Shown here: positions 6,033 through 55,310 of the stretch, piece after piece | How positions within the stretch are numbered: the first letter of the stretch is position 1 | Layout of the letters: each line of letters begins with the position of its first letter | Assembly (NCBI GenBank): GCA_964350735.1 | Contig: CAYGKO010000002.1 | Span: 155,566 to 219,565 of the forward strand | DNA: 64,000 nt | Source: an uncultured Candidatus Saccharibacteria bacterium | GTDB lineage: Bacteria > Patescibacteriota > Minisyncoccia > Phycocordibacterales > UBA918 | Direction of reading: 5' to 3' | Made by a program: the position numbers and the translations under genes | The notes under the pieces: model-generated | What the model was told of the DNA's origin: nothing | Database searches by the model: none | What the model saw: the letters and a program-made list of their open reading frames with translations, nothing else

Positions 6033-9000
6033 TTGAATAAATGCTATATAACTACACAAAAGCCTATTATGCTAAAGGACACAATCATAAATATAGTTTC
6101 ACCGGATGAGTTTGAGAATCTTTGCCAACAAATACTTGTTGCAGAGTTTCCAGACTTCGAGGTAATTGATGACAGCTCAGGTGACGGTGGTAATGATGGC
6201 TATAGTGCTAGTGAAAAAACACTTTGGCAGCTTTACTGTCCTAAAAAAGATAATTTGTCGATAAAGGAGCAAAGAGAGCGATACCAGGCAAAGATCAGAA
6301 CCGACTTGGCTAAGGCAGCAAAACTTAAGAGCGAAAAAGGGTACGAGATAGATAGATGGATTTTTACAACAACAAAACCACTTACAGAAGAATTACACAC
6401 TTATCTAAGGAATAAAGCCGGGGATTACGGCTTTGCCTGTTCAGTGTGGTCGTCAAAAAAACTAAATGAGTTGCTGTCAAAACACTCACATGTACAGGAT
6501 TTGTTTCCAGACTTAGTTTTAGCAAAAACTCACGAGCTGGTTGAGGAAGTTAAGGCAAACCAAAAAAGTGTTGCCGACTCAGAAGCAAAAGGAAAACAAA
6601 CTCTCAATTCCGCGTTTAAGAAAAGAATTGACGAGGCCAGAGATCGGTTAAATGTTGGCAATGCCGCAAGCGCAAAGGAGTCATACATGAGAATCTTGGA
6701 TGACATGAGTGAATATCCGTCTGAGATAGATCAGCATCTACTCTTCAGAGCAAAGAATAACCTAGGAAATGCTGAACAGATTCTCGGGAATTACCCAGAG
6801 GCTGTCAGATTATTCAGAGAAGCTTTTGAGCACGATCCAAATAATAAGGTTGCGATACTGAATCAGGCATTAGCATTAACACTCGAAGAAAAGTATGAAG
6901 AAGCATTAGGCTATCTAGAAACTATTTCTGCTGACTACGGTACTGATAATCACTACATTGTTATCAGATGCAATACTCTCAAAATGCTCGGTAGATATTC
7001 AGATTTATACGAATATTTAGGACCTCTGTCCAAACCAAAATTACTTTTAACATACAGGGCTTTTGAACAACAAGACGCAGGAAATTCAAAAGAGGCCCTT
7101 CATTTTTTTGAAGAGGTTTTAAAAATTGAGCGTGGCAATCAAGAAGCTCTTGAAGGTGCCACCCACTCCGTTTTATTTGGTTATAAAGATGATTTGCGTA
7201 ACGGAACTTTGCCTGAATACATGTTGAAGCCAGAGCTGCGTGAAATATTCCAAAAGACTGAGTCATGGATCAAACAGTTAATTGAAATATACAAATTCAA
7301 TAACGAGACTCAAAAGATTGAGGCGGGCTACACAAACCTGGCAGCAGCACAGTTAGCTTTGTCTGACTATCAAACAGCACTCAGATCGGCTCAAAAAGCG
7401 CTCGACTATGACGCTACTTCAATGGTTGCGTGGCAAAACAAAGGTATATGTGAACTGAAACTAAATAACTACAAAGATTGTCTACACAGCCTAAAACAAT
7501 TCGTTGTTTACGGGGGTGTTGAAGCTGCCGTAGCTCCTGTGCTGGCTATGTGTGCACGAGAGATCAATGATCATGATCTGACTATTGAATACGGTGAAAA
7601 ATATTTGCATGTTGATGGAACTATAGATATTGAGATGGCAGAAATTCTAATTGGCGTTTATGCGAACGATCTTAATACGGAGAAAGTTGAGCGAATTCTA
7701 AACGAACTTAAGGACTCTCACCCAGATGATAGTTCAGCGAATAGAGTAATTGGAAATTTTTATAGCAAGCGAGGTTTAGACGACGCTTTATCTCACTTAG
7801 AGAAAGCTATAGCTAAAGCACAAAACCCAACAGATAAAATGATGGCTGAAGTAGCGCTTGCTGACCACCATTTTAAGAGCAGTGACTATAACAAAGCAGC
7901 TGATTTATACGAAAAATATATTGATAAAGATGAAGCACGTTTTGTAACAATAAAATACTTACGCTCTCTTTATCGAGCTGGTAAATATGGTCAGTTATTG
8001 AAAGAGGTGTCAGAGTTCGGTGACAGCGCTAAAAACATTGAGCAGGTTTTAGAGCTTGAAGCACATGCAAATCTAACATTGCAAAACATTGAAATTGCAG
8101 CCAGAAAGTTTAAAAAACTTTATACCAATACCGGAAATACGGACTACGTTATTAATTATGGGTTATGCGAAATTAGACAAAAGAACACCGACAAAGCAAA
8201 AAGCGCTTATGATGCTGCAAGGTCACAAGCTAAAGACATTAACGACTGGATGTCGTTAGCACATGGCTACACCGCGTTAGGTGACTGGGCCTCAGCAATT
8301 GACTTGGTTCATAAAAGCTACGAACAAGACCCTAATGACCCAGAAATAATGAAGTCTTATATATGGATATTTCTATTTTCTGAACAAGCTAGTGATATTG
8401 AAAGTAACGAGAAGCATGTGAAAACATTTCAAGAAATCAGTGTTAAATACGGTGAAAGGTTTCCTGATCAAGAAGACTTGCGAAGCATAAAGATTCAAGG
8501 TGATGATGTGACACCTATTTTAGAGATGATTAAATCTGTCTCGGAAAACGCTCAGCAGGCCCAAACCTTTTACTCAGAATCAAAAGCACCACTGTCCTTT
8601 ATTCCAAACATGACTGGCAGAAGTCCACTGGTTGTTTGGAATGCTTTTACTGCTGACAGTCAAACTGGTATTCAGTCAAATTTTGGGAGCGAAGACGAGA
8701 CAGTGTACGAACAAAAAACACTGAAAGAAACATCAAACCTACAGACTGTTATTGATATATACCCGATTCTGTTACTGCACCGAACAGGCTTCTTAGAAGA
8801 GGTTCTGGGTAATTTTAAAAAAGTTTACATCCACCAAAGCGTCCTTGATAACCTTAATGCTTCAATTAATGACGAACGGCTCGCTTTGAAAAACGGACAA
8901 GAAACTATCGGTTACAACAATGGCCAGTTTGTGATGACTGAGATGAGTGTTGAACAAATCTCGAAATCAGTCGAAAATGTAGAGACATTAATTGAAAAAA

Positions 9001-9626
9001 TTAAATCGTTACCAAATGTTGAAATAAGAGGCTTTGAGTCTGAAACTGATAACGTCGAGACTGATTTTCTCAATAAGCTTCATACCACGACAAGAAGTTC
9101 AGCATATCTAGCTAAGCAACTAGGCATACCGTTTTATACAGACGACAAGATAGTGCGTGCTGTCCTTAAGTCTGATGAAGTATATTCTTTCTCAACATAT
9201 GGCCTACTAACCCACCTTGCGTCTGAAGGTAAGATCACGGACGACCATTACCATTCACTTCACAAGCAAATGCTTGAGTTGGGCTACACATACGTACCTA
9301 TTAATGCCAAAATGATTTTTTATGAGCTGGTCAAAGAGATGAGTATCGAATCAATCGAAATTTATGCCAGAAACATCGCAAAACCTGAAACCACATTACC
9401 TTCAGTAACAGTTGTCTTGAGTGAGTTACTACTCTTTCTCTTAGCTGAAACTGCGATTCCAAACTCTACAAAAAAACAAGCTTTTCAGAGAATGTTGTCA
9501 GAGATAAAAGAAAATCACGATGTGCAAAATATAAGAGAAGGTATATCGTTGATTCTTGGAAAAAATTTAGACAGCACACAAAAAGTCTTTGTAGACCAAT
9601 TACTCGATACTCTTATTGGAAGGTAG
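6033..9626 (+). CDS. Large multidomain protein (1197 aa). N-terminal Mrr-like PD-(D/E)xK restriction-endonuclease domain, a long TPR-repeat array, and a C-terminal domain with PIN-like acidic motifs.
   Basis: The N-terminus FENLCQQILVAEFPDFEVIDDSSGDGGNDG ... LWQLYCPKK ... RWIFTTTKPLTEEL matches the Mrr_cat pattern (FExl..ll..mGy.v ..gDgGiD .. vQcKry .. ifvTt). Many 34-residue A/L/Y/N-rich repeats span roughly residues 200-800. The C-terminal region has VIDIYPILLL and FYTDDKIV acidic motifs. Confidence 0.6.
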   Translation: MNKCYITTQKPIMLKDTIINIVSPDEFENLCQQILVAEFPDFEVIDDSSGDGGNDGYSASEKTLWQLYCPKKDNLSIKEQRERYQAKIRTDLAKAAKLKSEKGYEIDRWIFTTTKPLTEELHTYLRNKAGDYGFACSVWSSKKLNELLSKHSHVQDLFPDLVLAKTHELVEEVKANQKSVADSEAKGKQTLNSAFKKRIDEARDRLNVGNAASAKESYMRILDDMSEYPSEIDQHLLFRAKNNLGNAEQILGNYPEAVRLFREAFEHDPNNKVAILNQALALTLEEKYEEALGYLETISADYGTDNHYIVIRCNTLKMLGRYSDLYEYLGPLSKPKLLLTYRAFEQQDAGNSKEALHFFEEVLKIERGNQEALEGATHSVLFGYKDDLRNGTLPEYMLKPELREIFQKTESWIKQLIEIYKFNNETQKIEAGYTNLAAAQLALSDYQTALRSAQKALDYDATSMVAWQNKGICELKLNNYKDCLHSLKQFVVYGGVEAAVAPVLAMCAREINDHDLTIEYGEKYLHVDGTIDIEMAEILIGVYANDLNTEKVERILNELKDSHPDDSSANRVIGNFYSKRGLDDALSHLEKAIAKAQNPTDKMMAEVALADHHFKSSDYNKAADLYEKYIDKDEARFVTIKYLRSLYRAGKYGQLLKEVSEFGDSAKNIEQVLELEAHANLTLQNIEIAARKFKKLYTNTGNTDYVINYGLCEIRQKNTDKAKSAYDAARSQAKDINDWMSLAHGYTALGDWASAIDLVHKSYEQDPNDPEIMKSYIWIFLFSEQASDIESNEKHVKTFQEISVKYGERFPDQEDLRSIKIQGDDVTPILEMIKSVSENAQQAQTFYSESKAPLSFIPNMTGRSPLVVWNAFTADSQTGIQSNFGSEDETVYEQKTLKETSNLQTVIDIYPILLLHRTGFLEEVLGNFKKVYIHQSVLDNLNASINDERLALKNGQETIGYNNGQFVMTEMSVEQISKSVENVETLIEKIKSLPNVEIRGFESETDNVETDFLNKLHTTTRSSAYLAKQLGIPFYTDDKIVRAVLKSDEVYSFSTYGLLTHLASEGKITDDHYHSLHKQMLELGYTYVPINAKMIFYELVKEMSIESIEIYARNIAKPETTLPSVTVVLSELLLFLLAETAIPNSTKKQAFQRMLSEIKENHDVQNIREGISLILGKNLDSTQKVFVDQLLDTLIGR

Positions 9627-9858
9627 AACAACTTTTCACTTTGATTTATTTTGAAAACTAGTCGCAAAAAATATACGAAGTAAAAATTCTTAGAAAGTTT
9701 GGAAAATGGGGGTTGTTGCTATATGACACTAGTGACAGACTAACTCAAATTTCTAACTGAGAGAGTGAAAATATTGTTGATTTGATGTATTCAGTGCTTT
9801 CCCCAAGTTCGGAAAGCCAGTATAATGGGTCACCAAAGGGGTCACACGACCCAATTAG

Positions 9859-9887
9859 AAAAAACCGCCAGAAATGGCGGTTTTTTC
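9859..9887. terminator. Bidirectional rho-independent terminator.
   Basis: A-run, then stem ACCGCCA, loop GAAA, stem TGGCGGT, then T6. It sits after the 1197-aa gene and ahead of the minus-strand RAYT. Confidence 0.5.
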
Positions 9888-10087
9888 TGTAGGCACTTTA
9901 TCGAAATGCATTCACCCTCGCAGGGTCCCGAACTTTTCAGTTCTGGTCTCGCTGATGTCGTCCCCCCAGTTTTCAGGGTCCGTGACCCAAGGTCAAGAAT
10001 TGTCTCGCTCCATACGACGGTAGACGCGTTTGATCAGTTCAAGATGGCGACGCAGATGTTCATCTTTGTTCATAAGGTTCGATTTAC

Positions 10088-10866
10088 GGGGAAATGGTGT
10101 CAGCGGGGAAATGGTGTCAGGGGAAATGGTGTCAGGTACCTTTTATCGGCCTCCCTCTCCCTCGTACCGTCATGCTCAGCTTGTGTCTATCAATCATAGT
10201 GTCTGACCATACATCAGAGCCAAAGGGCTTCCCCTTATTCACCGCATTTCTAGCAGCTTCTAGTTCTGCTGCTGTCAGGGGTAACTGGAGAAAATCTAAG
10301 TAGTTGTTTGGCAATGAAACCGGAGGTGAAGATACTATCGTACTTTTAATGGTATGGAGTCTTTGGTATGCACTGGAATACTTCCAGTTCTGAATATTTT
10401 TAACTAGCTTCGCCCGCAGCGGGTTTCTTTCAACGTAGCGAATGACTGTTAAGAGGTGCTGATCTTGCTGAATTAAAAAAGATTTGTATCTTCCTTGGTA
10501 CAAGGAACCTGAACCAATAGTTTTATTCTGTACATGCCATCGCTGTGTATGAGTGAGCGTGAGCCATTGCATGAACTTCTGTAGATCACCATCTTTTCTT
10601 GGGTGAAGCACGAGATGAAAATGATTAGGCATAATACAATACGCCAATACACGCATGTCGTATTTTTCAACACCATCCTCTAGAATAGACTCAAAGAGTT
10701 TGAAATCTTCTTCTTTGAAGAAGATTTGTAGCCTTGCATTAGCCCTATTAATGATGTGATAGATTTCACCTCCAATATCTACTCTTGGTACCCTTCCCAT
10801 ATGTTACTATAGTAACATAAAAGGTACCTGACACCATTTCTGCTGACACCATTTCTGACATTTCTG
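10088..10866. mobile_element. REP-flanked RAYT / IS200-IS605-like element. A Y1 transposase gene is bracketed by multi-copy inverted GAAATGGTGTCAG repeats.
   Basis: Left end has 3 tandem copies of GGGGAAATGGTGTCAG (10088-10135). Right end has 2+ inverted copies of CTGACACCATTTC (10828-10866). The terminal 18-mers GAAATGGTGTCAGGTACC (10123-10140) and GGTACCTGACACCATTTC (10823-10840) are perfect reverse complements. Confidence 0.65.
10132..10800 (-). CDS. tnpA: HuH-Y1 transposase (REP-associated tyrosine transposase / IS200-like TnpA, COG1943 type).
   Basis: HuH motif MPNHFHLVL and catalytic-Tyr motif YVERNPLRA. N-terminal R.PR...GEIYHIINRANARLQIFFKEEDF matches the RAYT N-terminal pattern. Confidence 0.75.
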   Translation of the reverse strand: MGRVPRVDIGGEIYHIINRANARLQIFFKEEDFKLFESILEDGVEKYDMRVLAYCIMPNHFHLVLHPRKDGDLQKFMQWLTLTHTQRWHVQNKTIGSGSLYQGRYKSFLIQQDQHLLTVIRYVERNPLRAKLVKNIQNWKYSSAYQRLHTIKSTIVSSPPVSLPNNYLDFLQLPLTAAELEAARNAVNKGKPFGSDVWSDTMIDRHKLSMTVRGRGRPIKGT

Positions 10867-10965
10867 CACTCAATTCTTCCCACAACATTAGTTTCCATCC
10901 TTAATTAATGACAGAACGGTTGATGGTGCAAAGCTATGCAGAACTAAGAAAACATCGCACATTCA

Positions 10966-11697
10966 TTAATTGAGCAACCTCATAGTATCTCCATAAATTA
11001 CTTCATTGGCAGCTCCAATAAATACCCTATCGTTTGGACTGATATTAATCTTGCCTTCTCTATTTGTAGATAAGCCGCCTGATTCATTTATGATAAAAGT
11101 TCCAGCAAAGTAAGGGAAACTATCTTTAGTAATGCTCACTATCCGACGATATCTTCCTTGCGCAACACGACAATATGAAAGCACGCTTGATTGATTTAAA
11201 ACAAATGGATATAGGCTGCTTGAAGATTGCCAAACGTGCTTTTGGAGTTCTGCTTGGTCTGAACCGGGGTCCATATTAAGGATTAAATCACCGATTGATC
11301 TCACCTTTTCCATGTGCTTATCATTATAAATAACCCCCTGTCCTTTCTTGGCTTCAAAAAACTCATTATGTGCAGGAGCAACTACTAAAGCATAAATGAT
11401 TTCGCCTTTGTTAACCTCAGCCACACACAGTGCATACTCTGCTGTGCCAGCATATAACTGATTAGTTCCGCTTATTGGGTCTATGACCCAATAAGTGTCT
11501 TTGCCTGGATCCATATTATTAATATCCTCACCGTATATGATTGGGTCGTTGATTTCTTTAGAAAGTAGACTGAAAAAATCACTCTCTATATTTTCCTCAA
11601 TCTTTTTAAGTCCGTCTTCTGTCGTATCCTCAGGTAAATGACTCAAAATTTTCTTTCCTTGATCTATAAGAAAGTCTTTTACGGCTACATAGTTCAT
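10966..11697 (-). CDS. Inositol monophosphatase / CysQ family phosphatase.
   Basis: Signature WVIDPISGTNQ (the WxIDPIDGT metal-binding motif of the IMPase/FBPase superfamily). Confidence 0.6.
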   Translation of the reverse strand: MNYVAVKDFLIDQGKKILSHLPEDTTEDGLKKIEENIESDFFSLLSKEINDPIIYGEDINNMDPGKDTYWVIDPISGTNQLYAGTAEYALCVAEVNKGEIIYALVVAPAHNEFFEAKKGQGVIYNDKHMEKVRSIGDLILNMDPGSDQAELQKHVWQSSSSLYPFVLNQSSVLSYCRVAQGRYRRIVSITKDSFPYFAGTFIINESGGLSTNREGKINISPNDRVFIGAANEVIYGDTMRLLN

Positions 11698-11748
11698 ACG
11701 GTAATAATTGATTAGTAATGAATCTTATACAGTATAATATATTTAATT

Positions 11749-13152
11749 ATGAAAAAAATATGCCTAGTTGGCTTCGGTCCGCACGCTAAACGCATTCACT
11801 ACCGATATATAAAAGAAGGAGTGTCCTCCGAGAAGGTTCAATTTTCTTCCTTGGTGGATCTCATAGAAAAAAATGATGACATAAACACTTTCTTTTTAAC
11901 AGAAACGTGTTTGCCAAAAAATATATTTCTATCAAGGGATTCAGACCAAAGAGTGCCTGACAAATTAGCTGATGATGTTAAATTATTCTTGGACCAACAA
12001 ATTAGTCAGGGAGAAATTAACTGCGCAATTATCTCAACTGAACCTAAGGCACATAAAATATACATCGAGTATTTTATTTCCCGCGGTATTCCTGTGTTAA
12101 CAGACAAACCACTCACTGCCCCAGTTGGTTTAGTCCATAACCAATTGCAGGCTGAAAAGATTTATACCGATACTCTACAACTACAGGCATTGAGCGAAGC
12201 AAACAAAACTCCAATTTATGTACTATCACAAAGAAGAGAGCATGACGCGTATAAACATATCTTCAATTTAGCAGCTCAATGTGTTGCTGAATTTGGCATA
12301 CCAATTACATATTTTGATATCTTTCATAGCGACGGAACTTGGTCCATGCCTGGAGAATTCTACTCACGCGAAAACCATCCCTACAAGTACGGTTACGGTA
12401 AACTAATGCACTCAGGGTATCACTTTGTTGATTTGGCAGCCTGGGTAGCAGAAGTTAATGCGAATATTTATCCAAACCTACAAATTACTAACACTACTGA
12501 ATTACTCAGTCCACAGATGCAATATGAGCAGATTAACGGCTCGCAGAATTACGAGAGATTCTTTGGTAAATTAACAAATAGCCCGCAACCAGAAGGACTA
12601 GGTGAGGTTGATAGTTATACGACTATCAAAATGCACGTTCCTGGTGAAGACCCAGCTTCAACAAAACACATCTCCCTTGGTAGACTAGATCTACTTCAGT
12701 CTGGTTTCTCACGCCGAGCATGGTTTGATTTAGCGGCAGATACCTACAAAGGAAACGGTAGAATACGTCACGAGAGAATCACCATGCACCTTGGTCCTTT
12801 AATGGCTATTCACGTTCACTCTTATCAGTCTGATCAGGTTGGCAAAACAAACATCGAGGGAGTCGGTGGCGAAGAACATTTAGATGTATACGTATTTAGA
12901 AATGACCAACTGATTGGCGGACGTGGTTTTGAGCGCTTAAATTTTGGTCAAATCATACATTCACGCCATCAGTCAGAATCTACCTACATAGGTCAAAATG
13001 AGATTTCAAGGTGGAAGATTTTCCAGCAATTTATCACCGATGAAAAAAGTGACGCTTTAATTGAAAATCAACTTGTAACAAACAAATTATTGAATAGTAT
13101 GTATATATCGGCGATTACCAAGAAATCACACAATATTAAATATAATGACTAG
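11749..13152 (+). CDS. Gfo/Idh/MocA-like NAD(P)-dependent oxidoreductase.
   Basis: N-terminal Rossmann start KICLVGFGPHAKR. Family EKP-like motif GIPVLTDKPL. 467 aa with a long C-terminal domain. Confidence 0.45.
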   Translation: MKKICLVGFGPHAKRIHYRYIKEGVSSEKVQFSSLVDLIEKNDDINTFFLTETCLPKNIFLSRDSDQRVPDKLADDVKLFLDQQISQGEINCAIISTEPKAHKIYIEYFISRGIPVLTDKPLTAPVGLVHNQLQAEKIYTDTLQLQALSEANKTPIYVLSQRREHDAYKHIFNLAAQCVAEFGIPITYFDIFHSDGTWSMPGEFYSRENHPYKYGYGKLMHSGYHFVDLAAWVAEVNANIYPNLQITNTTELLSPQMQYEQINGSQNYERFFGKLTNSPQPEGLGEVDSYTTIKMHVPGEDPASTKHISLGRLDLLQSGFSRRAWFDLAADTYKGNGRIRHERITMHLGPLMAIHVHSYQSDQVGKTNIEGVGGEEHLDVYVFRNDQLIGGRGFERLNFGQIIHSRHQSESTYIGQNEISRWKIFQQFITDEKSDALIENQLVTNKLLNSMYISAITKKSHNIKYND

Positions 13153-13591
13153 TATGACTGAATTAATAAAAGGAAGAAAAGTTCAAGGTATTATTTATTA
13201 TAAGAACCAAGCCGGGGGGTTAAGTATATTGGGTCTACATCGAACCCCAGAAGAAGGAGGTTTTTGGCAACCTTTGACAGGCACAGTAGAAGAAGGTGAA
13301 TCATACCAAGAATGCTTGATGCGTGAACTGCAAGAAGAGACGGGTATTACAAGTAATCAAATAATTAAAATTGATGGTCCTATAAATACCTTTGAATGGA
13401 GTCGGGATAATACTCTTTACGAGGAACATGTGTACTCTGTTGAGGTCTCTTCAGAAACCCAGGTACGATTATCAGAAGAACATGATGAATACAAGTGGGT
13501 TACACCAGATGAAACTAAAGTAATGTTTAAATTTCAAGAAATAAAAGACGGGATTGATATTTTAAATGGAAAAGAATCAAAAACAAACTGA
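13145..13591 (+). CDS. NUDIX hydrolase.
   Basis: Nudix box GTVEEGESYQECLMRELQEETGI (Gx5Ex7REuxEExGu). Confidence 0.7.
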   Translation: MTSMTELIKGRKVQGIIYYKNQAGGLSILGLHRTPEEGGFWQPLTGTVEEGESYQECLMRELQEETGITSNQIIKIDGPINTFEWSRDNTLYEEHVYSVEVSSETQVRLSEEHDEYKWVTPDETKVMFKFQEIKDGIDILNGKESKTN

Positions 13592-14495
13592 GGTAAAAAA
13601 CAAAATAGCTACCGTTCTAAAAAATGAACTCGGGTGGGCTATCGAAGTTTCAGAACTAAAACCTACAACGGATAGTTTTGCAAACTACGTCTTCTTTTTC
13701 TCTTTTAACAATGAGACGTTTTACGCAAAGTATTTTCCTTCGGTATTTAAGGACAATGAAAGTATCGACAAACCAGAAGGTTCATTTTTAAGAGAGGTTA
13801 CTATTTATGAATTTTTAAATAAAAGTAACTACAAAATAGCTCCCGAATTCATTTTCAGGTCACAAAATGAACCGATTTTAATTACTAAATCATGGGGATC
13901 TAGTAACTTTTTACCAAAGTTAAATTCGCTGACACAGGAAGAAGTTCTAAACCAAATTACTTGCGTAATCAGCAAAGCTGTTTTGTTCCGATCCTGTCTG
14001 AGAGACAGTCAAGTACAATTAACTCTTGGTGATCAACTCAATGTCTTTTCAAGACTGCAAGAGCAGTATCTTATACATAAACCTTTACAACATTTAGGTT
14101 TATCTGCTGATGATGTTGACAATTTTGAAGACAATTATTTATTAATACAGAAAGATTTAGCCATTGGTGACCTGTCTCTAAAAAATATCCTGGCGGAAGA
14201 TTCTGATGTGAGATTTTGTGATTTTGAATCAGTATTTTTAGCACCATTAGTATTCGACATATGTTATTTAACCGCTGATTTATTAAGTAAAATGCCTCTA
14301 CTGAACGATGAAGAATTGCTTAAAAAAATATTCTTTTCATGTACGCAAAATTTGAGTCCTCAAGAAAGAGCCATGTTCTTCCCTCTGGTGTCAGTATGCA
14401 TGAGCTATCGCACCAAAAATGCCGTAAAATCATTTTCAACTAAGGAGTGGTCACAAAGTCTTTTGCAGACTATATTTCACACCAGAATGCCTTAA
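13566..14495 (+). CDS. Kinase-like phosphotransferase (aminoglycoside/choline/sugar kinase APH family).
   Basis: Catalytic-loop and DFG-like motifs AIGDLSLKNIL ... VRFCDFES, matching hGDlhpgNil / viDfe of the APH family. Confidence 0.55.
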   Translation: MEKNQKQTEVKNKIATVLKNELGWAIEVSELKPTTDSFANYVFFFSFNNETFYAKYFPSVFKDNESIDKPEGSFLREVTIYEFLNKSNYKIAPEFIFRSQNEPILITKSWGSSNFLPKLNSLTQEEVLNQITCVISKAVLFRSCLRDSQVQLTLGDQLNVFSRLQEQYLIHKPLQHLGLSADDVDNFEDNYLLIQKDLAIGDLSLKNILAEDSDVRFCDFESVFLAPLVFDICYLTADLLSKMPLLNDEELLKKIFFSCTQNLSPQERAMFFPLVSVCMSYRTKNAVKSFSTKEWSQSLLQTIFHTRMP

Positions 14496-47058: not shown

Positions 47059-49848
47059 TTATACCAGACCGGCAAACGGGTTATCGCCTGGCTGTGGTTT
47101 AGGGGGGTCTTCTTTTTTGTAGCGTTCGGCGATTTCGGCTTCGATTTCAGCGCGGGGGCGGCCGTAGCGATCGAGGCTCTTTTGGATCATAGTCTGCACG
47201 TGGGCCTGGTCACTTTCTGGTGGAGGCTCGGTCGAGACACTAAAGGGTTTGGTTGGGACGCCGTTGGCCAAAATCTTCATGTAGGCCTGGTAGTTCGGAA
47301 TATTCATAATGTCACCTGCGTCGAAAGTTGGTTCAAGTTGCTTCTCAAGGAAATGTCCGTCTTCAGGACCAACCCGAAAGATCGACATCGACCCGACGTT
47401 GCCAAACACCGCATCTTTGATTGAGTCATCCAGCTGAGCAATAAACTGGTGCGCCATCGTAAGGCCAAGCTTATACTTACGAGCTTCAGACAAAATTGAC
47501 GCGATCGCCGGGGTAGAGACGTTTTGGAACTCATCGATATGAAGGAAAAATGGCGGGAAGCCTTTGGTCGGATCATCCACTCGCGACAATGCCGCCATCA
47601 GGATCTTCCCCACGAAGATCATACCGATGAGGTTCGCATTGATCTCGCCAAGACGACCCTTCGAAAGATTGATCAAAAGAATTTTTCGCTCGTCCATAAT
47701 CTGCCGGAAATTAAAGGCACTATCTTGCTGTCCGATAATCGGCCGCATGTAGTCGTTGGCGGTAAAGACGTCAAACTTCGACACGATGTACGGCACGATA
47801 TTTTCGAGACTGGCTTCCCCACCCGCTTTAGTCGCAATCTCGCGCCAGAATTGAATCACCACCGGATTGGTGGCTTTTTCAAGCTTCATGCGGCGATACT
47901 TGGCGTCAGCCATTACTCGAGAAATATCCATCAGCGTATTACCACTGTCCGGATCGTCCATCACGAGCAGGGTCGCATTACGGAAATACTGCTCAAACAT
48001 CGGCCCCATCGATTCAGGATTGCCACCGTACAGTTTTTGGAAAATTGAAAAGAGTTCGTTTACCACGAACGTCTTTTGCTCTGGCTTCGTGCGGTCGTAC
48101 TCAAGCATATTGAGTCCGATCACTTGCTCAAGGTTAGACGGGTCAAAGTAGATTACATCATCGACTCGCTCAGGTGGAATAGCTCCAAGCACATCCTGAA
48201 TGTCGCTCCCGTGCGGGTCGATCATACACACACCATGTCCTTGCTGAATATCCTGCACAACCATGTTCTGCATAAAGACCGACTTACCGGTACCGGTCTG
48301 TCCGATGATGTAGAAGTGGCGCATCCGATCGTTTTCGGTGACGTAAATATCTTTATTGACGCCTCGGTGATTATTCTTTCCAAGCAGCGTCCCATCAGTT
48401 GGCATCTCGGTTGGCGCCGCTGCGGTCTTCGCACGCGACTGCTTAAATTGTGGACTCGAGTCAATTCCGCTCCCCGGGAAATGCAACATAATAGCCAACT
48501 CCTCAAGCGAGAGCGGCAGTATGTTTTCTTTGCTGAACTCGCGGAATGAATAGGCTTTAATAGCCCGTTTCAGCGCTGTGCCAGTCGGGTGCAACCACTT
48601 CAGACGGTTAGCTCGAGTGTTCTCGAATTGATTAAAGGTGGCTTCAATCTCAGACAAAATTTTCTTCGCCTGCCCCTCGGTCTTCGCTGACACTGCAATC
48701 CGAATATTGCTATCAACAATCGGTTTACTGCGTTTGTGAGTAATCAGCTCGATTGTGTCTTGATCGACATCGCTCTTTTCAAAGCCGGTATCGTCATTCT
48801 TTGATTTGTTGAAAATCATGTCTTTGAGACCAACATACAGTTCGCCCCCGAGCGTATCACTCGCTATTGCGTCTTTCGGTCGCATCCCATCACGGATTTT
48901 CTTAATGATGGTTTCGTAGCGATCGGTATAGCGGGTCGGGGTACTTTTTATAGAAATCTGCAATGACGCACCACCCCCATCACGCTCAATCTTGGAAAAC
49001 GCATTTAAAAGCACCGCCAGTGGGTCCGACTGAAAACTTTCCGCTTCACGCAGTGGATAGACCGGGTGTTTTTGGAGCGCAGCTACTGACACTAAAGAAA
49101 CCCCTTCGTCGACGAAGATGTTGTAGTCGTGCACTTGTTGTGTGAGGACTGCGTTGGGGAAAAGCGAGAGGATTTGTTTTTCAAACAAATCAATAAACTC
49201 ATCGGGTACTGATACGTAAAATACAATATCGTCACTCTTGTCCGACACCCCGATCTCGAGCACGTAATGGTCCTTCCCCTTCCCATGACCCACACTCTGC
49301 ATACCCGAGTAAAACTGCTCCATCATTGAAATGATCTCAGCCAATTGCTTCTCGCGCCCCTGTTCTTCTGGCACTTCTGGTAACGATACTTCAAAAAGCG
49401 TCATATGCAGCACCTGCCATGGTGGAATTCCTTCTTTTACCCCCTGCAGCTCTTTACCTGATTTAATGTGCTCGATCAGTAAGCGATGGACTTCGTCGGT
49501 CGTGAAGGCAGTTGATGATTTTTCTACTACCGAAAGGGCATTACGAATCCCCTCTCTCATGGCGACTTCAATAATCTCTGCTGCCGGGTCAGCCGCGGTC
49601 TCTACCTGAGCCACTGATTCCGCCAACCCAGCCTCGTCCATCTGCTGTTCTTGTTTCAATACCGTGTCCGGCGTGAAGGTACCATACTCATGCAGTACCT
49701 GCTTCCCCACGGTTTCAAAATCAGCCTGATCCACCTCCGCCGGACTGCGCTCCAGCACCTCCCGTTCTTTCTCAGCAATCTGGGCACGCAAAAAAGCGAT
49801 CTCTTCTTCCGGAGTCGAAAATTGTTGTTGCGGAACCCCCTCTTTCAT
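47059..49848 (-). CDS. virB4: VirB4/TrbE/TraC-like type IV secretion or conjugation ATPase.
   Basis: Walker A YIIGQTGTGKS in the C-terminal half. Walker B region FFLHIDEFQNV. Downstream ARKYKLGLTMAHQ matches the VirB4 RKy..(s/t)Q motif. There is a ~450-aa N-terminal domain. Confidence 0.6.
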   Translation of the reverse strand: MKEGVPQQQFSTPEEEIAFLRAQIAEKEREVLERSPAEVDQADFETVGKQVLHEYGTFTPDTVLKQEQQMDEAGLAESVAQVETAADPAAEIIEVAMREGIRNALSVVEKSSTAFTTDEVHRLLIEHIKSGKELQGVKEGIPPWQVLHMTLFEVSLPEVPEEQGREKQLAEIISMMEQFYSGMQSVGHGKGKDHYVLEIGVSDKSDDIVFYVSVPDEFIDLFEKQILSLFPNAVLTQQVHDYNIFVDEGVSLVSVAALQKHPVYPLREAESFQSDPLAVLLNAFSKIERDGGGASLQISIKSTPTRYTDRYETIIKKIRDGMRPKDAIASDTLGGELYVGLKDMIFNKSKNDDTGFEKSDVDQDTIELITHKRSKPIVDSNIRIAVSAKTEGQAKKILSEIEATFNQFENTRANRLKWLHPTGTALKRAIKAYSFREFSKENILPLSLEELAIMLHFPGSGIDSSPQFKQSRAKTAAAPTEMPTDGTLLGKNNHRGVNKDIYVTENDRMRHFYIIGQTGTGKSVFMQNMVVQDIQQGHGVCMIDPHGSDIQDVLGAIPPERVDDVIYFDPSNLEQVIGLNMLEYDRTKPEQKTFVVNELFSIFQKLYGGNPESMGPMFEQYFRNATLLVMDDPDSGNTLMDISRVMADAKYRRMKLEKATNPVVIQFWREIATKAGGEASLENIVPYIVSKFDVFTANDYMRPIIGQQDSAFNFRQIMDERKILLINLSKGRLGEINANLIGMIFVGKILMAALSRVDDPTKGFPPFFLHIDEFQNVSTPAIASILSEARKYKLGLTMAHQFIAQLDDSIKDAVFGNVGSMSIFRVGPEDGHFLEKQLEPTFDAGDIMNIPNYQAYMKILANGVPTKPFSVSTEPPPESDQAHVQTMIQKSLDRYGRPRAEIEAEIAERYKKEDPPKPQPGDNPFAGLV

Positions 49849-49913: not shown

Positions 49914-50363
49914 CTATTTTATTTTACCAAGATCTTCATTAACCCAAGTTGCTCTAAAGGCCTCCAGTTCTTCCGTCATATTTTCTGTTGGTGACATTGC
50001 TTTATAAACATAAATTTTCTTTCGTAAAAAATATGCTACTCCAATCTCTATAGTAGTCGCATTGCCGATGTATTGCGACTTGCCCTTTTTAGGTAAATTT
50101 AATATCAGCACTGCATCTGAAGCTTCAATTTTATTGTAGTGGTCTCTGTAAGCATCAAGCTCAACTGCATGTGCTGCCTCAGCGGCACTATCTTTTAGAT
50201 TCGGTGAAGCAATATGCATGTCAGTGTCTAAAGGCACTAACACTTCATGACCATATGATTCTAGCTTTGTTTTACACTCATTCATTTGAACTGCAAAACT
50301 CATACTACCGCAAATAGTAATTTTCATATCAAATACTCTAACTAATTCAAGACTAATTACCAA
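49914..50363 (-). CDS. Nucleoside 2-deoxyribosyltransferase-like (flavodoxin-like fold) protein. The true start is probably the internal ATG (MKITICGS...).
   Basis: KITICGSMSF ... VLVP ... ASDAVLILNLP ... GNATTIEIGVAYFLRKKIYVY resembles the NDT/DUF4406 pattern (kiYlAGp ... D..d.vva.l ... sGtafElGyAyalgKPv). Confidence 0.4.
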   Translation of the reverse strand: MVISLELVRVFDMKITICGSMSFAVQMNECKTKLESYGHEVLVPLDTDMHIASPNLKDSAAEAAHAVELDAYRDHYNKIEASDAVLILNLPKKGKSQYIGNATTIEIGVAYFLRKKIYVYKAMSPTENMTEELEAFRATWVNEDLGKIK

Positions 50364-50482
50364 ACGCTGATTTTGTAGGCAAATACGCGGAATGGCAAAA
50401 TTTATGAAGGAGACGTATGACTATACGGTGACTGAGAAAATTGTAGTCATGACAAAGTAGTTGTCACAAAATCAGCGTTTGG
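50360..50482. repeat. 17-bp perfect inverted repeat (CCAAACGCTGATTTTGT / ACAAAATCAGCGTTTGG) bracketing the whole mreB2 to NDT-like intergenic region.
   Basis: Arms at 50360-50376 and 50466-50482. The spacer contains further short palindromes (GACTATAC / GTAGTCATGAC). Confidence 0.5.
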
Positions 50483-51485
50483 CGATGACCGTTCGTTTGT
50501 AGGTATCCAAATGCTCGAGTGCAATTCCAGTTCCCTTCACTACACAAAAAAGCGCTTGGTCTGCCAACCTAGCTTTCACACCCGTCCGGCGCTTGATCAG
50601 CTCGGGAAAATTACGGAGCTGTGAAGTACCACCGGTCATAATAATGCCGTCGTCGATAATATCAGCCGCGAGCTCTGGTGGGGTCTCCTGAAATACATCC
50701 TTGATCGCTTTGACCATATCGCGCAGCTCTTTTCCGATGGCTTTTACGATCTCGTTGGTACGGACTTCGGTAGTGCGCGGGAGGCCAGTGAGGAGATCAC
50801 GGCCTTTAATATCCATTACCAACTCTTCTTCGAGCGGCAGCGCTGAACCAACTGTAATCTTTACGTCTTCAGCAGTCTTTTCACCAATCGAGAGGTTCCG
50901 CGTCTTTTTAATATAATCAATAATCGCGGCGTCGATGCGGTTGCCGGCACATTTCACAGAGTTCGCCGCTACAATCCCCCCAAGGGAGATCACCGCTACG
51001 TCGATGGTTCCCCCACCAATATCAACAATCATGTGGCCCTGGGGTTCATAAATCGGAATCCCAGCTCCAATCGCAGCCAAGATAGGTTCTTTTACTACAT
51101 ACGCATTACGTGCCCCAGCCTTAAGCGCGGCTTCTACCACGGCGCGTTTCTCAGTCGACGACACTCCCGCCGGCACCGATACCATTACCTCCGGTTTAAA
51201 AATACTGTATTTACCGAGCGCCTTACCCATAAAGTAGCGGAGCATGGCTTCGGTCACGCGGTAGTCAGCAATTACCCCGTCTTTCATCGGACGATAAGCT
51301 TTAATACTCTCTGGCGTCCGGCCAATCATCCGCTTCGCTTCAACTCCCACCGCGAGCACCTGGCTGTCGTCAGACACAGCTACTACTGAAGGTTCGTTAA
51401 GTACGATCCCCTCACCCGGCACATACACTAATACATTAGTTGTGCCCAAATCGATCCCAATCTTCGGATTGAATTTCCCAAACAT
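50472..51485 (-). CDS. mreB: Second actin-like MreB/Mbl paralog.
   Basis: IGIDLGTTNVLVYV, DIGGGT, and a full ASKHA actin-fold pattern. Length 337 aa. Confidence 0.75.
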   Translation of the reverse strand: MFGKFNPKIGIDLGTTNVLVYVPGEGIVLNEPSVVAVSDDSQVLAVGVEAKRMIGRTPESIKAYRPMKDGVIADYRVTEAMLRYFMGKALGKYSIFKPEVMVSVPAGVSSTEKRAVVEAALKAGARNAYVVKEPILAAIGAGIPIYEPQGHMIVDIGGGTIDVAVISLGGIVAANSVKCAGNRIDAAIIDYIKKTRNLSIGEKTAEDVKITVGSALPLEEELVMDIKGRDLLTGLPRTTEVRTNEIVKAIGKELRDMVKAIKDVFQETPPELAADIIDDGIIMTGGTSQLRNFPELIKRRTGVKARLADQALFCVVKGTGIALEHLDTYKRTVIAKR

Positions 51486-51559
51486 GTAGGTAGTAGTGTA
51501 GCTGGTTTTCAGAGATTGCCAAGGCTGATTAAATTTGTGAATAGATTGTTTTACAGATA

Positions 51560-51580
51560 TAGCAGATTTGCTATAGTATG
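51560..51580. promoter_or_regulatory. Near-palindrome TATAGCAGATTTGCTATA plus TATAGT -10-like element upstream of the HTH-MurA gene. Candidate autoregulatory operator.
   Basis: 9/9 versus 8/9 inverted half-sites, located within 20 nt of the start codon of a gene that encodes an XRE HTH. Confidence 0.3.
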
Positions 51581-53086
51581 AGCATTATGCAAAACATTGG
51601 AACCAATATCGCCGACCTGCGTGAATCAAGCGGCTTCACCCAAACAGAGCTCGCTAAAAAAATTAAAACCACCCAAAGTGCCATCGCGCGCATGGAAAGC
51701 GGTCGACAGAACGTCAGCGCTGACATGCTGAAGAAAATTAGTAAAGCCCTAGGAAAAAACCTCATCACCCTCTCCCCTGGCACCGTCAACCTCGAAATCA
51801 CTGGTGGTCAAAAACTCAAAGGCACCATCGAAACCAACACCTCAAAAAACGGCGCCGTCGGCCTCCTCTGTGCCTCTCTCCTCAATACCGGCAAGACAAC
51901 CTTGAAGCGTATGCCCCGCATCGAAGAGGTATACCGCTTGGTAGAGGTGCTTGAAAGCATTGGTGTTTCTATCCAATGGACTGGTGACGAAATGGTGATT
52001 CACCCGCCGAAGAAACTTCGACTTAAAGACATTAATGTGGACGCCGCGCGGAAGACACGAAGTATCGTGATGTTTATTGGACCACTCTTACACCGCCTGA
52101 AGTCATTTCATCTACCCCAATCAGGTGGCTGCAAACTCGGCAGTCGGACCGTAAAGCCGCACTTCTACGCCCTCGAACACTTCGGGGTTGATATTGTAAC
52201 GACTGAAAATGCCTTCGTAGTGAAAGTCGACAAAAAAATTCCGTCTGAAATCATCCTCTACGAATCTGGTGACACGGTAACAGAAAATGCGCTCTTTGCC
52301 GCCGCGCTCACTCCCACTACTACCGTTATCAAGTACGCTAGCGCTAACTATATGGTGCAAGAAATGTGCGCCTTCTTAATGGCCTGCGGGGTACAGATCG
52401 AAGGGGTTGGCACTACCACTCTTACCGTCACCGGACTCGAGAAAATCAATCAAGACATCACGTACACGCTCGCTGAAGACCCAACTGACACCATGTTCTT
52501 TCTGGCGGCAAGTATCGTAACCAACTCCAGCATTACGATCACCCGCTGCCCGATCGACTTCCTTGAGCTGGAACTCCTCAAACTGCAAAAGATGGGCTTT
52601 AAATACAAATTGAGTAAACCCTATGTTGGGGAAAATGGCATGGTGCGCCTGGTTGATATCACCACCAAACCATCAAAGCTGGTATCACTCGGTGAGAAGA
52701 TCTACGCTCGCCCGTATCCTGGCCTCAACATAGACAACCTCCCCTTCTTTGCCGTCATTGCCACCCAAGCCGAAGGTCAAACTCTCATTCACGATTGGGT
52801 GTACGAGAAGCGAGCTATCTACTTCACTGAGCTCGACAAGCTTGGAGCGGAAACTGTCCTCGCTGACCCACACCGCATCTACATCAACGGCCCGACAGCA
52901 CTACGCGCCAACGAGCTCATCTGTCCACCCGCTTTGCGACCGGCCACCATCCTCCTTATTGCTATGCTCGGCGCCTCTGGTCGTTCGGTTCTGCGTAACA
53001 TCTACAGCATCAACCGCGGCTACGAAAACCTAGTGGAACGCCTTGCTTCGCTCGGCGCTGACATCAAATATTTGGAAGAGTTTTAA
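51578..53086 (+). CDS. murA: UDP-N-acetylglucosamine 1-carboxyvinyltransferase (MurA) fused to an N-terminal XRE-family helix-turn-helix domain.
   Basis: Residues ~8-60 FTQTELAKKIKTTQSAIARMESGRQNVSADMLKKISKALG form an XRE HTH. MurA body LEITGGQKLKGTIETNTSKNGAVGLLCASLL has the catalytic loop LPQSGGCKLGSRTVKPH (E. coli LPGGCTIGARPVDLH). The C-terminus SINRGYENLVERLASLGADIKYLE matches [23 protein letters not shown]. Confidence 0.75.
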   Translation: MSIMQNIGTNIADLRESSGFTQTELAKKIKTTQSAIARMESGRQNVSADMLKKISKALGKNLITLSPGTVNLEITGGQKLKGTIETNTSKNGAVGLLCASLLNTGKTTLKRMPRIEEVYRLVEVLESIGVSIQWTGDEMVIHPPKKLRLKDINVDAARKTRSIVMFIGPLLHRLKSFHLPQSGGCKLGSRTVKPHFYALEHFGVDIVTTENAFVVKVDKKIPSEIILYESGDTVTENALFAAALTPTTTVIKYASANYMVQEMCAFLMACGVQIEGVGTTTLTVTGLEKINQDITYTLAEDPTDTMFFLAASIVTNSSITITRCPIDFLELELLKLQKMGFKYKLSKPYVGENGMVRLVDITTKPSKLVSLGEKIYARPYPGLNIDNLPFFAVIATQAEGQTLIHDWVYEKRAIYFTELDKLGAETVLADPHRIYINGPTALRANELICPPALRPATILLIAMLGASGRSVLRNIYSINRGYENLVERLASLGADIKYLEEF

Positions 53087-53341: not shown

Positions 53342-53395
53342 CCGGGTGGCAGAGCTTCTGCCACCCGGGCCGTCGATTTCAGGCGGCCTTTTTTC
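53342..53395 (+). terminator. Compound terminator after the small ORF.
   Basis: CCGGGTGGCAGA-GCT-TCTGCCACCCGG perfect stem. A second weaker stem GGCCG..CGGCC is followed by TTTTTTCTTATTT. Confidence 0.5.
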
Positions 53396-53417
53396 TTATT
53401 TGCTACAATACCCTTCT

Positions 53418-55310
53418 ATGCACGTCATTGAAGTCATCCCGCTCGCTCGCGCCTCTACCATCGAATCACTGACGTATTACTCTAGCGTTGCCTATCCGGC
53501 AGGGACAATTATTGACGTTCCTATCCGCAAGCAGCAGAAGCGCGCGGTGGTAGTAAGCGCAAAGCCTGTCTCAGCCTCAAAGACCGCCGTAAAGACGGCT
53601 ACTTTTAGCCTTCGTAAGCTGCCAGAACAACCGAAGACCAATACCCTGCCCCCAGTTCTGATTGAGACAGCGAAACGACTCACCAAGGTCACACCAGCTA
53701 GCTTAGGAGCTATTTTATTCACACTTTTACCTCCTGAAGTACGTGACGGTGATATTGATCTCACCGGAAACCTCCCAGCTGCAGATAGCTTTGAAGTGCC
53801 TTCTGTCACTATTTTTCAAGGCACCGAGGAAGAACGGATTCGCACTTACCGCAGCAGCATCCGGGAGACATTCGCTCATGGCGGATCAGTGTTACTGGTC
53901 GTCCCCACCTCTGCTGATGTCACAAAGTTGGCTGATGCGCTCAGTAGCGGGATCGAGAAACGAGTAGTTACCTTTACTCGCAACCACACCAAGAAAAAGA
54001 TGCAGACGGCATTTACCAACTTCGCTGATTTATCTCACGCCAAGCTCATCATCACTACTCCTGCCTATAGCTGTCTCGACCGGCACGACATTACCAATAT
54101 CATTATCGAGCAGTCGCATAGCAACCATTACAAAGCCAAGACTCGACCGTACTTAGACACTCGAACTGTCTTACACACCATTGCTCAAGTGGCCGGGCGA
54201 CAGATTTTGATGGGCGACCTTCTTCCCCGTTCTGAGGAAGAACAAAAACGTCGAGACGATTTCTACAATACAGACGGTGAATACCCAAAACGCCTTACTC
54301 TGCCAGGTAAGCTACGCATCTTGACTCAAGTAACTACCAAAACCTCAAGTGACTCCTGGCAATTATTCTCCAACGAACTTAAAGACATCATCACTGACAC
54401 CCACAAAAGCCGCGGACGCAGCTTTATTCTAGCGGCGCGACGCGGCATCTCACCACTCGTAACATGCATAGACTGTGGCCTGATCTTTCGATGTCCCGAT
54501 TCAGGCGAACCCTACTCACTACATAAGACAGTCAGAAACGGCGAAGAAAGACGGTGGTTTATTGCCGCTAGCGCTGGACGTCGCATTATCGCCCCTGACA
54601 CGTGTACAAAATGCGGCTCATGGCGACTGCAAGAGCGCGGCATTGGCGTGCAACATATTCAATCCGAATTCAGGAAGCAATTCCCTGATATTCCGGTCGT
54701 ACTGTTTGATCACACTACTGCCACCACCCCGCGCAAAGCGGCGCAATTGATTGCTTCATTTTATGACACCAAGGGAGCAGTGTTACTGGGCACAAGCATG
54801 GTGCTCTCCTACATTGAAAAACCAATCACAAACACTATCCTGACTTCCCTTGAAGCCACCCGAGCAATACCATCTTGGCGGGCGGAAGAATCATTTTTTG
54901 CATTACTACTCCGTTTGCGTGAACTCGCCACCGAACAAACAGTTATCCAAACCCGGAGTGAACCCGATGACATTCTTAAGCTAGCCGAGCAAGGTCTGGT
55001 TGAACAATTCTATACTGAAGAGCTCGAACTACGTGAAGCGCTGAAATACCCCCCATACAGCCACTTTGTGCATCTGACACTACAGGGAGATCCGTTAGCA
55101 CTACCAGAAATCGAGGAACAGATTACAAAATTACTAGAAAAATATAAAATCACTTTCTACACGGCCCCGCAGTTTGTAAAAAATGGCATCAGACGGTACG
55201 GCCTCGTCAGAATCTCACAGACTGCCTGGCCTGACGAAAACCTCATGAATCTCCTGCGTACCCTGCCACCATCAATTCGAATCGAGATTGATCCGGAACG
55301 AATTGTATAA
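53418..55310 (+). CDS. priA: Primosomal protein N' (PriA)-like replication-restart protein with a degenerate Walker A. The start is reassigned from 53346 to the ATG at 53418.
   Basis: N-terminus MHVIEVIPLARASTIES...AGTIIDVPIRKQQKRAVVV parallels E. coli PriA (VAHVALPVPLPRTFDY...GCRVRVPFGKQQERIGIV). Cys4 zinc element CIDCGLIFRCP...CTKCGS. The position of GVTGSGKT is occupied by QGTEEERI. Confidence 0.55.
   Translation: MHVIEVIPLARASTIESLTYYSSVAYPAGTIIDVPIRKQQKRAVVVSAKPVSASKTAVKTATFSLRKLPEQPKTNTLPPVLIETAKRLTKVTPASLGAILFTLLPPEVRDGDIDLTGNLPAADSFEVPSVTIFQGTEEERIRTYRSSIRETFAHGGSVLLVVPTSADVTKLADALSSGIEKRVVTFTRNHTKKKMQTAFTNFADLSHAKLIITTPAYSCLDRHDITNIIIEQSHSNHYKAKTRPYLDTRTVLHTIAQVAGRQILMGDLLPRSEEEQKRRDDFYNTDGEYPKRLTLPGKLRILTQVTTKTSSDSWQLFSNELKDIITDTHKSRGRSFILAARRGISPLVTCIDCGLIFRCPDSGEPYSLHKTVRNGEERRWFIAASAGRRIIAPDTCTKCGSWRLQERGIGVQHIQSEFRKQFPDIPVVLFDHTTATTPRKAAQLIASFYDTKGAVLLGTSMVLSYIEKPITNTILTSLEATRAIPSWRAEESFFALLLRLRELATEQTVIQTRSEPDDILKLAEQGLVEQFYTEELELREALKYPPYSHFVHLTLQGDPLALPEIEEQITKLLEKYKITFYTAPQFVKNGIRRYGLVRISQTAWPDENLMNLLRTLPPSIRIEIDPERIV

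Follow-up and report, generated by a model that had tools for sequence, protein, structure and literature searches.

In a 64,000-nucleotide stretch of DNA from an uncultured Candidatus Saccharibacteria bacterium (contig CAYGKO010000002.1 of assembly GCA_964350735.1; the whole stretch is hereafter called the window), we found a gene encoding MurA with an XRE-type helix-turn-helix (HTH) domain at its N-terminus. We propose that this protein, HTH-MurA, is a bifunctional enzyme-repressor, predicted to repress its own apparently leaderless promoter, and we put the probability of this reading at about 0.78. The evidence comes from comparison with relatives: a palindrome in the promoter is conserved, is specific to this promoter, disappears where the HTH is lost, and varies in step with the recognition helix. 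Autoregulation of the enzyme through its own HTH had been suggested by the original prediction, which was made from the window alone; the comparison supports it, and it is from this pattern that we infer DNA binding and repression.

The HTH-MurA gene and its promoter

Both domains lie in a single plus-strand open reading frame (ORF) of 502 aa (51578..53086), which also contains both peptides quoted in the original prediction. Pfam HTH_3 matched residues 11-62 of this ORF (E 1.5e-15, 57.4 bits, cut-off 23) and Pfam EPSP_synthase matched residues 75-489 (E 3.1e-43, 148.5 bits, cut-off 22.8), confirming that MurA is fused to an N-terminal HTH of the XRE type. The parts of the gene are as follows.

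51587..53086, plus strand: HTH-MurA gene from its probable start, 499 aa plus stop; an alternative ATG at 51578 would give 502 aa
51608..51763, plus strand: XRE/Cro-C1 type HTH domain (Pfam HTH_3 and AlphaFold2 helices)
51668..51697, plus strand: recognition helix TTQSAIARME (assigned from conservation and operator tracking)
51752..51787, plus strand: linker of about 12 residues between HTH and MurA (low confidence in AlphaFold2)
51788..53083, plus strand: MurA (enolpyruvyl transferase) domain with intact catalytic residues; the codon equivalent to Cys115 is TGC at 52130..52132

The true start is probably ATG 51587, giving a protein of 499 aa that begins MQNIG. We preferred this start because nearly all homologues are 499-500 aa long and begin there; one of them, P0001, has 499 aa and is 100% identical to the window protein.

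The window MurA domain looks catalytically competent, as judged from its sequence. It scored 312.3 bits against the NCBIfam MurA subfamily NF006873, above the cut-off of 297, and a residue-level alignment to solved MurA identified equivalents of K22, N23, R91, C115, R120, D305, R331, R371 and R397 (E. coli numbering). The presence of these residues, C115 included, bears out the earlier description of a complete MurA with its catalytic Cys loop. An AlphaFold2 model built from a 71-sequence alignment, with a mean predicted local distance difference test score (pLDDT) of 90, consisted of an HTH, a linker and a MurA body. In Foldseek comparisons, the MurA body matched solved MurA structures (5u4h, 1uae, 3swg and others) with template modelling scores of 0.88-0.93, normalised to the target. 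The Cys loop (residues 182-186) was of low confidence in the model, as expected for a flexible loop.

In the same model, the HTH had four helices (residues 2-14, 19-25, 30-37 and 45-55). Linker residues 56-67 were of low confidence, with pLDDT <50 at 61-65, and lay between two confident domains. The solved sequences nearest to the HTH alone were a designed DNA binder, 434 repressor, HipB, HigA and ClgR. Among 71 fusion proteins, T28, Q30, S31, A32 and R35 were invariant, and helix positions 2, 5 and 7 varied in step with the operator half-site.

Upstream of the gene, we located an inverted repeat and a promoter that overlap.

51558..51575, no strand: operator-like palindrome TATAGCA-GATT-TGCTATA (core ATAGCA-N4-TGCTAT at 51559..51574), unique in the window and conserved in relatives
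51550..51555, plus strand: -35-like hexamer TTTACA of the murA promoter (promoter scan), poorly conserved in relatives
51569..51577, plus strand: extended -10 element TGcTATAGT, inside the right arm of the palindrome

The original prediction had described a near-palindrome right before the start codon. The palindrome is real and in fact perfect, with 7-nt arms and an N4 spacer, but it spans 51558..51575, two bases to the left of the previously given start, and the start codon is probably ATG 51587. The promoter scan returned TTTACA-16 nt-TATAGT at 51550..51577, with 10/12 matches and a TG ahead of the -10. Since this TG-extended -10 overlies the right arm of the palindrome, the right arm is the extended -10 box. 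The -10 hexamer TATAGT (51572..51577) immediately adjoins ATG 51578 and is separated from ATG 51587 by 9 nt with no Shine-Dalgarno sequence; the murA mRNA would therefore be essentially leaderless.

Leaderless or Shine-Dalgarno-less initiation may be general in this genome rather than specific to murA. In 49 crude gene calls over the window, a Shine-Dalgarno-like sequence preceded the first ATG in only about 7 long ORFs, and about 20 had a TAnnnT box 6-10 nt upstream instead (a crude count on uncurated starts).

As a structure, the palindrome was not significant by itself: the window holds 12 perfect 7-N4-7 inverted repeats, compared with about 4.5 in shuffled sequences. Because such repeats are common here, the significance of the palindrome comes only from its conservation. 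The other 11 (at 1605, 1958, 4303, 9864, 10801, 16169, 24011, 32221, 44516, 47045 and 62815) do not resemble the murA operator and could be terminators or other operators. We rejected an RNA hairpin or terminator as the role of the palindrome, which lies upstream of the predicted transcription start and would form a stem of 6-7 AT-rich pairs; a terminator-like site was not found in 51400..51700. A second operator site was not found in the 64-kb window either, where matches with up to 2 mismatches occurred at chance level; no wider regulon was found within the window.

Conservation of the fusion and its predicted operator

The fusion is not confined to this genome. Both domains were present in all 120 best homologues listed (78-100% identity) and in all 120 listed of a second search, and identity stayed at 75-85% across many genera. 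Relatives are encoded in 144 GTDB species genomes, whose labels include Paceibacteria, Kaiserbacteria, Nomurabacteria and Saccharibacteria; most of the 80 that we fetched have both domains in one frame. In a library of representatives at 50% identity, full-length fusions extended down to 32-53% identity, and a profile search revealed a second large clade of about 506 aa that includes Saccharimonadales and Liptonbacteria. About 250 fusion proteins in an alignment of 357 keep all nine catalytic residues named above. Judged from these sequences, HTH-MurA is the standard MurA architecture across much of the Patescibacteria, also known as the candidate phyla radiation (CPR). What was earlier described as an unusual moonlighting arrangement is thus no single-genome oddity. 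One-frame fusions in hundreds of clusters also rule out a frameshift, a mis-assembly or a split gene; we looked for an HTH of this type encoded by a separate gene upstream of or near the HTH-less murA genes of 12 relatives, and found none.

We compared the upstream regions of 80 GTDB loci, and in almost all of them ATAGCA-N4-TGCTAT stands a short way ahead of the start codon. Well more than 100 related uncultured bacteria have such a palindrome on the HTH-murA promoter. The pattern ATA[GT]C[AG]-N4-[CT]G[CA]TAT occurred 70 times in the 747 kb that the related loci comprise, and 68 of these copies were upstream of HTH-murA (65 within 120 nt and 3 within 240 nt), leaving only 2 elsewhere. The palindrome, whose conservation had been proposed as a check, was thus retained in 68 of about 72 assessable loci, and the flanks of the 18-mer were essentially unconserved (70 loci). 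The distance from the 16-mer to the ATG is 9-14 nt in 54/70 loci, which puts the ATG 6-11 nt after the -10 and indicates that both the -10 overlap and the leaderless arrangement are conserved as well.

Relatives that lack the HTH served as controls. We found 12 loci (5 from GTDB and 7 from metagenomes) encoding a same-clade MurA without the HTH, and the palindrome was absent within 300 nt in 12/12. In these loci a TGnTAnnnT box still stands as far from the ATG as usual; the promoter thus persists, but the positions specific to the operator, which are the left arm and the C in TGC, have disappeared. In a rough neighbour-joining tree of MurA domains, the HTH-less forms fall at no fewer than three separate places inside the HTH-bearing clade, and therefore the HTH and the operator appear to have been lost together several times.

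We then classed 151 loci (drawn from GTDB, from metagenomes as an independent set, and from a few individual look-ups) by their recognition helix and by positions 3-4 of the half-site. Proteins with the helix [TS]TQS(A/V)xAR had ATAGCA/TGCTAT in 73 loci, a hybrid site in 3 and ATATCA in 2. Those with TSQSAxAR had ATATCA/TGATAT in 22 loci and ATAGCA in 0. Among the TSQSSxPR proteins, 10/11 sites were CT-bearing: ATCTCA/TGAGAT in 5 and mixed CT/AT in 5, with AT/AT in 1. TSQSAxNR proteins had ATATCA or ATACCA sites, or weaker ones, and the two TTQSG proteins had ATAACA-type sites. This pattern is the one expected if the fused HTH reads the palindrome, and the tracking of half-sites by the fused recognition helix supports the predicted binding.

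A copy from a distant phylum showed the same association. A cluster of 246 members, 53% identical to the window protein, comes from named Nonomuraea species (Actinomycetota). In Nonomuraea sp. NEAU-A123 (L169:7972-9530, JAHFZZ010000002.1), HTH-MurA has intact catalytic residues, and the AT-rich perfect palindrome ATCTCATATGTGAGAT stands 13 nt before the ATG in DNA of 69% GC. A phage-type integrase gene adjoins it, and the gene is probably an extra, horizontally acquired copy. The fusion and its palindrome together in such GC-rich DNA suggest that enzyme and operator travelled together.

Further support came from relatives whose enzyme domain has decayed. Seven deeply divergent representative clusters (P0131, P0132, P0139, P0140, P0142, P0232 and P0263) lack the Cys loop, R120, R397 and often K22; 12 such sequences were counted in the 357-protein alignment. 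All seven keep the HTH with an invariant Q-S-A...R...E.G.QN motif. We examined the gene context of five eroded relatives, three of which lie in the following loci.

L081:9915-9974, with genes at 7532-14295: eroded relative and mur genes
L084:95-6201: eroded relative and mur genes
L172:2714-8001: eroded relative and mur genes

Here P0131, P0132 and P0139 each divergently adjoin a stand-alone MurA (438-452 aa) whose K-N, GGC..G.R, D and R motifs are intact. The stand-alone murA is followed by murB in 2/3 of these loci, and each of the three eroded relatives is itself followed by ddl and/or Mur ligase genes. The palindrome upstream of these regulator genes is of the ATATCA-N4-TGATAT type: a perfect ATATCATATATGATAT stands just upstream of the regulator gene for P0132 and P0131 (for P0132, in the murA intergenic region), and P0139 has a 5-of-6 palindrome. 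With ATATCAAATATGATAT located 35 nt upstream of P0263, the operator is kept in 4/5 of the examined eroded relatives. From their sequences and surroundings, these proteins look like pseudo-enzyme regulators of the mur gene cluster, derived from the bifunctional form. That they retain the HTH and operator beside mur genes supports the view of the HTH-MurA module as a transcription factor for peptidoglycan precursor genes.

P0263 (L171:7001-8467) and P0232 are the most eroded and have lost K22, N23, C115, R120, D305 and R397. Their context is Saccharimonadia-like (murB, RelA/SpoT), and a stand-alone murA was not found within 7 kb. We also considered an HTH+DUF3467 protein beside murB in Saccharimonadia-like loci as a paralogous regulator, and rejected it as its recognition helix is unrelated.

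Proposed mechanism and alternative explanations

We propose the following mechanism. The C-terminal 430 residues would form a working MurA, catalysing the first committed step of peptidoglycan precursor synthesis, and the N-terminal 56 residues a classical HTH similar to that of XRE proteins and 434 repressor. Two HTH heads, implying a dimer, would bind the palindrome ATAGCA-N4-TGCTAT of 16-18 bp. With 10 bp between their centres, as in 434-type operators, its half-sites lie on one face of the DNA. Because the right arm is the extended -10 box, the bound protein would occlude it and block RNA polymerase, and the level of MurA would limit itself by negative autoregulation. DNA binding, dimerisation and the sign of regulation are the steps that we infer.

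Several points weigh against this proposal. The score of the window protein against the strict equivalog TIGR01072 (306.7) is under the cut-off of 392.7, which places it in a divergent MurA subfamily, and the equivalent of D369 is Ala in this protein and throughout the clade. The right arm is at the same time the extended -10 box, so that its conservation is in part due to something other than the proposed binding. Because the co-variation classes coincide with phylogenetic groups, they represent few independent events; there are also exceptions, namely TTQS proteins with AT/AT sites in L085 and L097, in addition to the hybrid sites, so that a strict one-to-one code (T-to-S with G-to-T) is too simple. 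Finally, MurA is generally described as a monomer, whereas the proposal implies a dimer.

Three other explanations deserve consideration. The window protein could be mainly a transcription factor, its MurA domain serving only as a ligand sensor and the real MurA being encoded elsewhere in the genome. Just such an arrangement exists in P0131, P0132 and P0139, which sit without C115, R120 and R397 beside an intact murA, and the low TIGR01072 score and the Ala at the D369 position would fit it too. However, about 250 fusion clusters retain all the remaining catalytic residues with hardly any variation, the high identity maintained across many genera implies strong constraint on the whole enzyme, and a second EPSP-synthase-fold gene was not found in the 64-kb window (of the ±4 kb flanks around the 80 loci, a minority was screened). 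We consider this explanation unlikely. It is less likely still that the palindrome is only promoter architecture, the extended -10 of murA with its mirror image serving the neighbouring gene, and that the HTH does something else, such as binding MreB. This neighbour is as follows.

50472..51485, minus strand: divergent neighbour mreB (Pfam MreB_Mbl, E 8e-130), a context gene

The right arm TGcTATAGT is indeed a good extended -10, mreB is divergent and adjacent in 65/80 related loci, and RodZ offers a precedent of an XRE-like HTH that binds MreB. However, the HTH-less loci L068 and L069 retain the divergent mreB and the extended -10, yet their left arm and the C in TGC are gone, whereas six loci without an adjacent mreB (L019, L031, L048, L070, L073 and L169) still carry the palindrome. 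Moreover, a promoter-like site belonging to mreB itself was located in the window on the minus strand (51522..51495), closer to the start of mreB and 36-60 nt away. On these three observations we rejected a back-to-back promoter pair with mreB. The "n" of TGnTATAAT, which a promoter leaves free, is fixed here and co-varies with the recognition helix. A RodZ-like, MreB-binding HTH was rejected as well: the RodZ-type profile HTH_25 was not among the Pfam matches at E<=0.01, no RodZ chain was among the PDB matches, and the sequence passes directly into MurA with no hydrophobic or membrane segment. The least probable explanation, in our estimate a very remote one, is that the palindrome is bound by a regulator encoded in another gene, the fused HTH acting on some other DNA target; no particular observation speaks for it. 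It would have to accommodate the loss of the palindrome wherever the fused HTH is gone (12/12 loci, which occupy at least three independent positions in the tree), half-sites that track the fused helix, and an HTH-MurA and operator cassette that is intact in Nonomuraea; another good site for the HTH was not found in the 747 kb.

We also considered an extension of the enzyme-repressor proposal. The open or closed state of MurA, set by UDP-N-acetylglucosamine (UDP-GlcNAc), phosphoenolpyruvate (PEP) or UDP-N-acetylmuramic acid (UDP-MurNAc), might tune DNA binding, so that the enzyme would act as a pathway sensor by analogy with BirA and PutA. MurA undergoes an open-to-closed transition and forms a tight dormant complex with UDP-MurNAc and PEP, which makes modulation by ligands plausible, but we hold this step to be somewhat doubtful. 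The full picture is slightly more doubtful: a ligand-gated trigger enzyme that senses flux and sets its own transcription across much of the CPR, a series leading from a bifunctional protein through duplication to a pure pseudo-enzyme regulator in control of a mur gene cluster, and a mobile cassette that entered Actinomycetota.

Some further features of the region were recorded. In 26/134 loci (about 1.3% expected by chance), the intergenic region between mreB and murA contains a DnaA-box-like motif, TT(A/T)TNCAC(A), often a perfect TTATCCACA, on the upstream side of the operator at a distance of about 29 nt; examples are L037, L053, L067, L085, L109, L113, L142 and L157. Many other loci have TTTTCC(A/C)C at the same position, and the window has only TTTTCAGAG there. 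Downstream of murA, an ORF of 654 aa (53346-55310, plus strand) had no Pfam match at E<=0.001; it contains the paired Cys motifs CIDCG...C and CTKCGS and is a conserved downstream neighbour in 69/80 related loci. On the other side, a protein of 929 aa (47059-49848, minus strand), found upstream in 45 related loci, weakly matched coupling proteins of type IV secretion as well as HerA/FtsK-like ATPases. Beside it, 49914-50363 (minus strand) encodes a nucleoside 2-deoxyribosyltransferase-like protein that was not found in related loci.

Significance and comparison with known systems

Control of MurA is central to cell-wall biology and antibiotic action because MurA is the target of fosfomycin. 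MurA is known to be controlled by feedback inhibition by UDP-MurNAc and, in Firmicutes, by ClpCP proteolysis through ReoM/ReoY. If our proposal is true, MurA would have a third form of control beside these two, and a very direct one, in the repressor head that it carries itself. HTH-MurA is apparently the norm in a huge, mostly uncultured bacterial radiation with very few transcription factors, and it would add to the few regulator-operator pairs predicted for CPR bacteria, here together with a specificity code made up of three helix/half-site classes. The eroded relatives beside an intact murA-murB would exemplify an enzyme turning into a pathway regulator. Since the Nonomuraea homologue occurs in named, presumably cultured strains, the prediction is open to standard biochemistry. 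Full-text literature searches found no description of an HTH-MurA fusion or of transcriptional self-control by MurA, and databases label the fusion as MurA or as "helix-turn-helix domain-containing protein".

By analogy, HTH-MurA would be a trigger enzyme of the BirA, PutA and NadR kind, an analogue without kinship: it combines an intact enzyme domain and a predicted DNA-binding domain in one polypeptide with a predicted operator at its own promoter, and it had no Pfam or NCBIfam match to the BirA, PutA or NadR families. BirA, the biotin protein ligase and bio operon repressor, has an N-terminal HTH and a C-terminal pathway enzyme, and its palindromic operator overlaps the promoter. HTH-MurA would likewise unite enzyme and repressor in a single protein with the HTH at the N-terminus. 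However, BirA joins a winged HTH to a biotin ligase fold, whereas HTH-MurA joins an XRE HTH to an enolpyruvyl transferase fold. Dimerisation and DNA binding of BirA are driven by its reaction intermediate, while an effect of ligands on HTH-MurA is hypothetical. BirA also represses the bio operon and not birA, unlike HTH-MurA, which is predicted to act on its own gene. PutA and NadR also combine catalysis with a DNA-binding domain and regulate genes of the pathways to which they belong, and PutA controls its own gene from a divergent intergenic region. Both are unrelated to MurA: PutA has a ribbon-helix-helix domain and switches by membrane association on reduction, and NadR has other catalytic domains.

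The head of HTH-MurA belongs to the same XRE/HTH_3 family as 434 repressor/Cro, HipB and ClgR, and the recognition helix of 434 repressor begins T-Q-Q-S, compared with T-T-Q-S in HTH-MurA. Like operators of the phage 434 type, the predicted operator is a short palindrome overlapping the promoter of the protein's own gene, and its half-sites are spaced by one turn of the helix. The difference lies in the partner: 434 repressor, HipB and ClgR are small dedicated regulators or antitoxins, whereas the HTH here is attached to a housekeeping enzyme of 430 residues. Canonical MurA of E. coli and E. cloacae shares the fold, the catalytic residues and the Cys targeted by fosfomycin, but has about 420 aa and no DNA-binding domain. 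For the eroded relatives listed above, the closest analogues are regulators of the MocR/GabR type, in which an HTH is joined to an enzyme fold that serves as a sensor; the comparison draws on an HTH joined to an enzyme fold that has lost catalytic residues, and on the pathway genes found next to the protein in 3/5 of the examined loci. MocR and GabR have other folds, however, and the window protein, unlike such regulators, still looks catalytically competent.

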